Below, in pieces: positions 1 to 1,017 of a DNA stretch of 35,927 bases (position 1 is the stretch's first letter; every line of letters begins with the position of its first letter). Both the position numbers and the translations under genes were made by a program. The notes under the pieces are model-generated. The model was not told the DNA's origin. It made no database searches and saw only the letters and a program-made list of their open reading frames with translations. The stretch is from Promethearchaeota archaeon (GTDB lineage Archaea; Asgardarchaeota; Lokiarchaeia; Sigyniarchaeales; SOKP01), in contig JAFGGO010000040.1 of NCBI GenBank assembly GCA_016930515.1, positions 1-35,927 of the forward strand. Reading direction: 5' to 3'.

Positions 1-1017
1 CCTAGAAATAGATTGAAACAGGGGGCACCTCAGGGATCTCAACTACGATCCCGTGCGTTTTGTAAATACCTAGAAATAGATTGAAACTTTTATTATGGCG
101 TTAAACTGTTGTTTAACGCTTAGTTTTGTAAATACCTAGAAATAGATTGAAACGGGGAATCAAACCTGCTTTACATGCTCACGCTATCGGGTTTTGTAAA
201 TACCTAGAAATAGATTGAAACCCCTCTCGGGCACAGGTACGACAATGCCGTACCTCGTTTTGTAAATACCTAGAAATAGATTGAAACTGGTCTGGCAGAA
301 TCCTATAAGGAAATCCAGATCAGGTTTTGTAAATACCTAGAAATAGATTGAAACATTCATTTCCACATCTTTCGCAAATTACGTTTTTTTGTTTTGTAAA
401 TACCTAGAAATAGATTGAAACATTGACGATCCCCGGATAAGTCCGGTTCATGTCATGTTTTGTAAATACCTAGAAATAGATTGAAACTTCGATTGTACCA
501 TCTTTTTTCTTTCCTACTTTCTGGTTTTGTAAATACCTAGAAATAGATTGAAACATACTCTGCACTAAAATCTTCTGAGTGCTTGTCTCGTTTTGTAAAT
601 ACCTAGAAATAGATTGAAACTGTTTTAGAAATACCATAAATTTGCGCTAATAGTTTGTTTTGTAAATACCTAGAAATAGATTGAAACATTCTATCTCCAG
701 GCAAAACGGGGCGATACATCTCGTTTTGTAAATACCTAGAAATAGATTGAAACATCGCAAGATTGACCTGTTTTTGATACGAAGTTGTCGTTTTGTAAAT
801 ACCTAGAAATAGATTGAAACGACTAATACTCCGATCAAATAATGATTTGTTTTCCCGTTTTGTAAATACCTAGAAATAGATTGAAACTCCAATTTCGACG
901 GCTCGATACTTTTAGCCATCTCGTTTTGTAAATACCTAGAAATAGATTGAAACTCGAATAAACGAAATATCATAGAGCTGTACTTTTGTTTTTAAATACT
1001 TAGAAATAGATTGAAAC
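1..1017 (+). CRISPR. CRISPR array 1 (leader-distal part, runs off the window start): 16 repeats (first partial), 15 spacers of 34-37 nt
   Basis: The 31-bp repeat GTTTTGTAAATACCTAGAAATAGATTGAAAC starts at 57,123,191,257,324,391,457,524,590,657,723,790,857,923. A degenerate terminal copy lies at 988-1017. The 3' ATTGAAAC tag and the degenerate last repeat indicate + strand transcription. Confidence 0.99.

Follow-up and report, generated by a model that had tools for sequence, protein, structure and literature searches.

Hairpin spacers in a type III-B CRISPR array of an Asgard archaeon point to tightly folded genes of AcrIII-1-like proteins

CRISPR array 1 of a Lokiarchaeia-type archaeon contains a block of hairpin-forming spacers, which is probably the footprint of DNA-encoded invaders with tightly folded anti-defence genes, so that the type III-B system of the host would now target the mRNA of an anti-CRISPR protein. 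Two spacers of the block, S1 and S4, can be assigned by protein-level homology, and comparison of their translations makes it very likely that both belong to one AcrIII-1-like subfamily and are antisense to its mRNA. That both of these spacers of an RT-equipped host fall on the same spot of a probable anti-CRISPR mRNA looks like counter-counter-defence. Two observations are joined here, namely the hyper-folded ring-nuclease genes of Patescibacteria and viruses and the hairpin spacers of an archaeon that possesses an RT.

The window, i.e. the whole stretch of 35,927 nucleotides that was analysed, is the entire contig C89 of a 4.0-Mb host genome (94% complete). A weak profilin match in this genome, together with a close relative of its RT that bears the name Promethearchaeota, is consistent with a Lokiarchaeia-type Asgard host. 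On the 3' side of array 1, the window carries a Crn1/Csx14-like gene, cmr1–6, cas6, a leader and array 2, in this order:

1–1017, plus strand: CRISPR array 1, with a 31-nt repeat, 15 spacers and a degenerate trailer repeat at 987–1017
20–56, plus strand: hairpin spacer S1, antisense to profile columns 58–69 of a probable AcrIII-1-like ring-nuclease gene, variant A
88–122, plus strand: S2, the strongest hairpin spacer, with a 9–10 bp stem; at background against the family and the carrier loci
154–190, plus strand: unfolded spacer S3, with stops in all three target-strand frames
222–256, plus strand: hairpin spacer S4, antisense to profile columns 57–67 of the same ring-nuclease-like family, variant B
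288–323, plus strand: hairpin spacer S5, in which the crRNA strand is the more stable one
422–456, plus strand: hairpin spacer S7, which folds; at background against the family and the carrier loci
1059–2153, plus strand: Crn1/Csx14-like CARF protein (host ring-nuclease type), with NCBIfam matches under the curated cut-offs
2584–9139, plus strand: cmr1–cmr6, the type III-B effector; all six genes exceed the NCBIfam cut-offs
3583–5547, plus strand: Cas10/Cmr2, with a GGDD cyclase (palm) motif and no N-terminal HD nuclease domain
9168–10019, plus strand: cas6 (Pfam match)
10154–10481, plus strand: array 2 leader, the start of which matches both ends of contig C79 and the end of which matches the start of the C156 mini-array
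10482–11037, plus strand: CRISPR array 2, with 8 spacers and no strong folders, used as an internal control

The presence of cmr1–cmr6 with Cas10/Cmr2 and cas6 bears out the initial annotation, which had assigned the array 1 locus to type III-B from the DNA letters. Array 1 decays at its right end, which implies transcription of the plus strand and a leader located off the contig. Since the contig start cuts the array, the hairpin spacers are only the newest ones visible, and newer spacers are missing from the contig. Cas10/Cmr2 is predicted to be cyclase-competent from its GGDD palm motif. Type III systems whose Cas10 has no HD domain extend their defence beyond RNA cleavage by means of cyclic oligoadenylate. 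Because the Cmr2 of this locus combines a GGDD motif with the loss of HD, its defence beyond RNA cleavage should likewise use cyclic oligoadenylate.

A degenerate mini-array at 12840–12955 of the window contains one spacer, and its leader end resembles that of array 2. The stretch 699–810 of array 1 is held unchanged by a 2017 hot-spring metagenome contig, which may come from the source sample itself or from another place where the strain lives. Contig C95 (loci L007 and L008) carries a second CRISPR locus, which includes a separate cas1 gene along with arrays of 15 and of 53 spacers and which looks like type I-D, judged from gene order.

When recomputed, the coordinates and stems of S1, S2, S4, S5 and S7 are as the initial annotation had described them. 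Their crRNA-strand MFE values are −12.8, −12.8, −11.9, −12.9 and −11.3 kcal/mol, respectively, and their mean z-scores over both strands against dinucleotide shuffles, the check proposed together with the stems, are −2.0, −6.5, −2.9, −2.4 and −2.0; only 0.6% of random host 36-mers reach −11. The crRNA strand of S1 taken alone is marginal (p = 0.086). In both S1 and S4, the target strand folds better than the crRNA strand, and that of S4 reaches −16.3 with a GNRA-capped stem that forms on this strand only, as had been noted. Strong folders make up 5 of the 15 spacers of array 1 versus 3 of the 128 spacers that served as controls (p = 3e-4 in Fisher's test, the cut-off having been chosen post hoc); the controls are the C95 arrays (3/68), array 2 (0/8) and the arrays of relatives with a similar repeat (0/52). 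Taken together, all 15 spacers differ from the controls with a Mann–Whitney p of 0.02, and the last eight are similar to the controls (p = 0.31). An open frame on the target strand, which had been part of the original argument, carries no weight alone, as 64 of 68 control spacers also have one. The stops in all three target-strand frames of S3 indicate that this spacer is either non-coding or inserted in the sense orientation.

The target-strand peptides of S1 and S4 are homologous to each other: their BLOSUM score is 34, the shuffled maximum averages 20.7, and none of 300 shuffles reaches 34. The coding differences between them lie chiefly at third codon positions. A codon-degenerate scan with the motif common to these peptides, which are only 11–12 residues long, led to the family by way of one real gene, found at locus L115; the remainder of its output was about 20 chance matches. 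These 4 viral and 17 metagenome matches lie mostly in short or implausible frames, and one falls where a large helicase-like ORF is poorly conserved. Part of the fit of S1 and S4 to the family is by construction, because the family was first reached through a motif built from them. On a profile of 149 members that were not picked for the motif, S1 and S4 reach 29.1 and 28.3 bits, respectively, the member median is 26.9 bits, and the next-best of the 142–144 spacers scored obtains 10.4 bits. About 12 bits of the S1 and S4 fit come from positions outside the search motif. The two spacers cover the same 10–12 codons of the family, both antisense to the mRNA, and the S1 peptide shares 10 of 12 residues with protein P0025. 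The 7-bp stem of S4 is kept in L115 and L139 with one compensatory pair (U-A/C-G). The peptide homology, the conserved S4 stem and the gene folding described below agree with the earlier suggestion that the source sequence encodes protein and is at the same time densely paired.

The search for a true protospacer was negative; the best nucleotide matches are 28/35 for S4 (to L139, with 27/35 to L115) and 25/37 for S1. The exact cores of S1 and S4 gave no hits in IMG/VR, the phage and plasmid collections contained no credible match to the array, and 400 genomes of the host's phylum returned just repeats and chance-level short matches. Spacers S2, S3, S5 and S7 are at background level against the family members, the carrier loci and the host proteome. 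The S7 peptide (422–454, minus strand) may resemble a motif that is conserved among M14/AstE-type deacylases, and that of S5 (288–321, minus strand) presumably resembles the metal-binding strand of minimal nucleotidyltransferases. Several other sources were rejected. The best match of array 1 to the host assembly is 27/36 nt in an AT-rich spacer, which does not support self-targeting, although rRNA is poorly assembled there and the unassigned spacers might still derive from host rRNA; the Crn2-type gene of the host has merely 16 nt in common with S1 and S4; and the group II intron RNA of relatives gave no matches.

The subfamily to which the L115 product belongs comprises about 296 clusters at 50% identity. 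Its structure model (pLDDT of 92) has 6SCF, 2J85 and 2J6B, which display the B116 fold, as top matches in the PDB, and the Foldseek comparison with AcrIII-1 (6SCF) gives an E-value of 3e-7 and a TM-score of about 0.66–0.70. A near-invariant His (98% conserved) in a helix-start motif corresponds by alignment to the catalytic His47 of SIRV1 gp29. Against Pfam PF08960, the L115 protein scores 20.9 bits, under the curated cut-off of 26. Judged from alignment and the predicted model, the subfamily appears to be a divergent branch of the AcrIII-1/Crn2 fold, and, by analogy, the invader gene probably destroys the CRISPR alarm molecule.

The coding sequence of this subfamily is often hyper-folded. A z-score of −3 or lower relative to synonymous shuffles, a rough value given that 10–25 shuffles were used for each gene, is found in 8 of 13 chromosomal copies (four of which are close kin) and in 3 of 9 viral copies, versus none of 30 host genes and neither of the host-type Crn2 genes. 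Folding is strongest in the chromosomal copies, which are mostly GC-raised; in these, the sense strand often folds better, with more G-U pairs. In two separate lineages of chromosomal copies, the gene is followed just downstream by a complete type III hammerhead fold; these folds were recognised by their conserved core and three-way structure, and Rfam gave no detection at the sites.

The neighbourhoods of the chromosomal copies have peculiarities of their own. A ring-nuclease-like ORF with 66–82% amino acid identity is found at L115:30–690 (minus strand), L129:9660–10420, L139:6320–7060 and L141:1740–2480, where the flanks are much better conserved than the ORF itself. In these four loci, an upstream direct repeat faces a divergent ATPase-wHTH regulator, and the downstream region contains a hairpin, the hammerhead and a terminator. 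In L115 and L139 the gene is adjoined by a Csx3-domain ATPase, which suggests a second ring-nuclease type. A Saccharibacteria island of about 3.4 kb (L156:2900–6300) carries the gene among orphan genes and is folded in both coding and non-coding parts, more stably on the sense strand, with z-scores of −4 to −9 in most windows and no Rfam match. One strongly folded Patescibacteria copy (L173:1500–1836, minus strand) contains a single in-frame TAG.

The carriers that could be placed are dsDNA viruses, plasmids and Patescibacteria-type chromosomes; part of the short contigs are without placement. On the viral carriers, the gene is accompanied by those for DNA helicases, primases, RecT, lysins or tail proteins, and distant members are carried by Planktothrix plasmids. 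Among the best 120 matches listed, all named members belong to Patescibacteria except one unclassified 'bacterium', and the gene was found in 7 of 401 Patescibacteria genomes sampled, two of which are the seed genomes. With the same query and a positive control run, the subfamily was found in none of 400 genomes of the host's phylum, hence no host-linked provirus carries it. In the ESM Atlas cluster, 78% of the few members with a known taxon are viral. The AT-rich chromosomal contigs of L115 and L139, which contain the closest nucleotide relatives of S4, we take as Patescibacteria owing to their similarity to named copies; the closest peptide relatives of S1 are found in a virus-like contig and in long contigs. 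When all cases are counted, the carrier of the source gene may well be a dsDNA virus or plasmid, with somewhat less than an even chance, and a Patescibacteria-type cell in contact with the archaeon is only slightly less likely. On a primase-encoding viral contig (L160:9400–11320), the gene sits within folded sequence just ahead of an anti-restriction gene, in a neighbourhood resembling an anti-defence cluster. In a virus-like contig, a GC-rich, gene-free stretch of 1.2 kb with repeats and no Rfam match (L152:2272–3470) is located upstream of the gene.

A search for an RT-Cas1 elsewhere in the genome, suggested by the initial annotation, led to contig C79, which ends in an RT-cas2-cas1-cas4 module; the RT is present but unfused. 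Both ends of C79 carry, facing outward, the start of the leader that is shared with array 2, and the C156 mini-array begins inside that leader, so that C79 is probably located between array 1 and the mini-array. [quoted passage not shown] It is one of a group of 352–372-residue RTs, in which its sister (locus L167) is 60% identical and has the same gene order, and a close relative is named Promethearchaeota. A decayed intron remnant is a less likely origin because neither intron RNA nor a frameshifted remainder is found and equally short relatives exist. The codon of the C79 RT (L006:12785–13894) that aligns with the Met of its sister reads ACG, and the first ATG removes a conserved N-terminal motif. 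Expression of the full RT is therefore uncertain; the ACG could serve as an unusual start codon, mark a recent loss of function or stem from misassembly. Of the short intron-less RTs of this group (loci L166–L169; P0175–P0182), one lies beside cas2-cas1-cas4, one near a CARF gene and one without cas genes in view. Two other short RTs have no adjacent cas1, a relative with orthologous cas1-cas4 has no RT at that place, and the tree of short RTs is compatible with both single and separate origins. C79 further carries several CARF genes and a canonical Crn2-type gene. As the RT module shares its leader with array 2, spacers could be captured from RNA, a prospect that we rate only slightly below even.

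In the explanation that we favour, the invader would express its ring nuclease early and destroy cyclic tetra-adenylate, as has a precedent in AcrIII-1 (10.1101/778746). With a Cmr2 that lacks a DNase domain, immunity should depend on the signal, which would make crRNAs that cut the ring-nuclease mRNA especially valuable; antisense spacers against this mRNA would have been retained twice, against two diverged variants. The adaptation module would sample stem-loops, either from a folded transcript by way of the RT or from hairpins in displaced ssDNA, and such sampling would explain why S1 and S4 both derive from one 30-nt hot spot. The bias of type III-A adaptation towards hairpins and early genes provides a precedent (PMC8860593, PMC13575424). 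Spacers S2, S5 and S7 are assumed to originate from other genes of the same folded region or regions. As to the benefit of folding for the invader, our guess is that it shields the mRNA from pairing with crRNA.

The initial annotation had tentatively attributed the hairpin spacers to an autonomous ssRNA virus or to a viroid-like or obelisk-like Asgard replicon recorded via an RT, and several observations agree with such a source. The spacers are folded and coding, the target strand of S1 and S4 is the better folded one, two highly diverged variants occur within four spacers, a sister lineage has kept the RT module together with cas2-cas1-cas4 (60% identity), and bacterial RT-linked type III arrays hold spacers to RNA phages and obelisks (10.1101/2022.02.15.480533, PMC13096302). 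The replicon would, however, have to encode an AcrIII-1-like protein, given that both assignable spacers fall in this family. Its placed carriers are DNA-encoded, the viral ones having the replication, recombination or tail genes listed above; no RNA replicon was found among the carriers that could be placed, and the short carrier contigs have no terminal repeats. Because DNA-encoded relatives are hyper-folded as well, the folding needs no RNA genome. This origin is very improbable. Protospacers in dsDNA viruses or plasmids had been named as the observation that would count against it; the DNA carriers nearly amount to this observation, although through relatives only, as an actual protospacer was not found. 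It is also improbable, if a little less so, that the family match of S1 and S4 is a coincidence and that the hairpins are there only because stem-loops such as terminators and origins of replication or transfer were preferentially acquired from unrelated DNA. The peptides comprise only 11–12 residues in a very large search space, and Cas1-Cas2 of type III-A has a documented preference for hairpins (PMC8860593). Against this, the homology of S1 and S4 was significant ahead of any database search, their fit extends outside the search motif, the family independently proved to be hyper-folded and to have an anti-type III fold, and neither array 2 nor the arrays of relatives display a hairpin bias.

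A more specific version of the favoured explanation, in which the source is a Patescibacteria-type epibiont, is unlikely. Folded, ribozyme-processed anti-defence transcripts of the epibiont would reach the archaeal cytoplasm, the RT module would record the RNA, and Cmr would then silence the message. The distribution of the gene (7/401 genomes versus 0/400 in the host's phylum, with Patescibacteria accounting for the named members of the best 120 matches listed, bar one 'bacterium'), the strong sense-strand folding and G-U pairs of the chromosomal copies, the hammerheads just downstream in two lineages and the position of such copies as the nearest nucleotide relatives of S4 all favour it, and there is a report of type III-E spacers directed at an epibiont from the Saccharimonadia (10.64898/2026.09.16.751625). 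On the other hand, the literature search gave no Patescibacteria–Asgard association, a virus-like contig is among the nearest peptide relatives of S1, viruses predominate among the few members of the ESM Atlas cluster with a taxon, RNA transfer is a supposition, and the RT may be crippled.

To our knowledge, little is known about what parasitises Asgard archaea. Given a cellular source, array 1 would directly test which organism lives on this archaeon as a parasite and whether RNA directed against immunity passes from cell to cell; were the epibiont the true source, a cellular parasite of Asgard archaea would be named and cell-to-cell delivery of anti-immune RNA would be indicated. What RT-associated CRISPR arrays target in nature is for the most part unknown (PMC8632793). 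The approach used here, in which translated spacers are compared with each other and then used for a codon-degenerate motif search, is applicable to other unmatched spacers of RT-associated arrays.

The components of the system are of known kinds: a type III-B effector, RT-linked adaptation, the AcrIII-1 fold and hammerheads. Similar to AcrIII-1/Crn2 proteins (DUF1874, PF08960; SIRV1 gp29, PDB id: 6SCF; STIV B116, PDB id: 2J85; 10.1101/778746), the target family has the same fold and a conserved His and occurs in viruses and plasmids. Unlike them, it shows only ~20% identity, has its own NPSH motif and an often hyper-folded coding sequence, and is also found in Patescibacteria chromosomes beside hammerheads; its ring-nuclease role is predicted. 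In the literature searched, natural type III spacers that target, or converge on, a ring-nuclease gene are not reported.

The C79 module resembles the RT-associated type III systems of Marinomonas (Cas6-RT-Cas1), Fusicatenibacter and Vibrio (RT-Cas1; PMC8632793) in that a group II intron-related YADD RT without intron RNA is linked to cas1/cas2 and a type III system. It differs from them in its unfused RT, in which most of domain X is missing, in the cas2-cas1-cas4 order that follows and in its Lokiarchaeia-type host; moreover, this RT belongs to the 352–372-residue set and has an aligned start of ACG. In the literature searched, no Asgard RT-CRISPR module is described. In the type III-A system of Streptococcus thermophilus (PMC8860593, PMC13575424), spacers are also derived from stem-loops and from genes expected to be early, but this system has neither RT nor Cas4 and was studied in the laboratory, whereas array 1 contains natural spacers with whole stems, and one gene family is hit twice. 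The closest parallel in terms of targets, a type III-E system directed against Ca. Phosphoribacter (10.64898/2026.09.16.751625), likewise targets RNA, and its spacers fall into open frames of a kind of gene that occurs in Patescibacteria. There, the matches are near-exact and both partners are bacteria; array 1 belongs to an Asgard archaeon and matches its target, which has an anti-defence fold, at the family level only.
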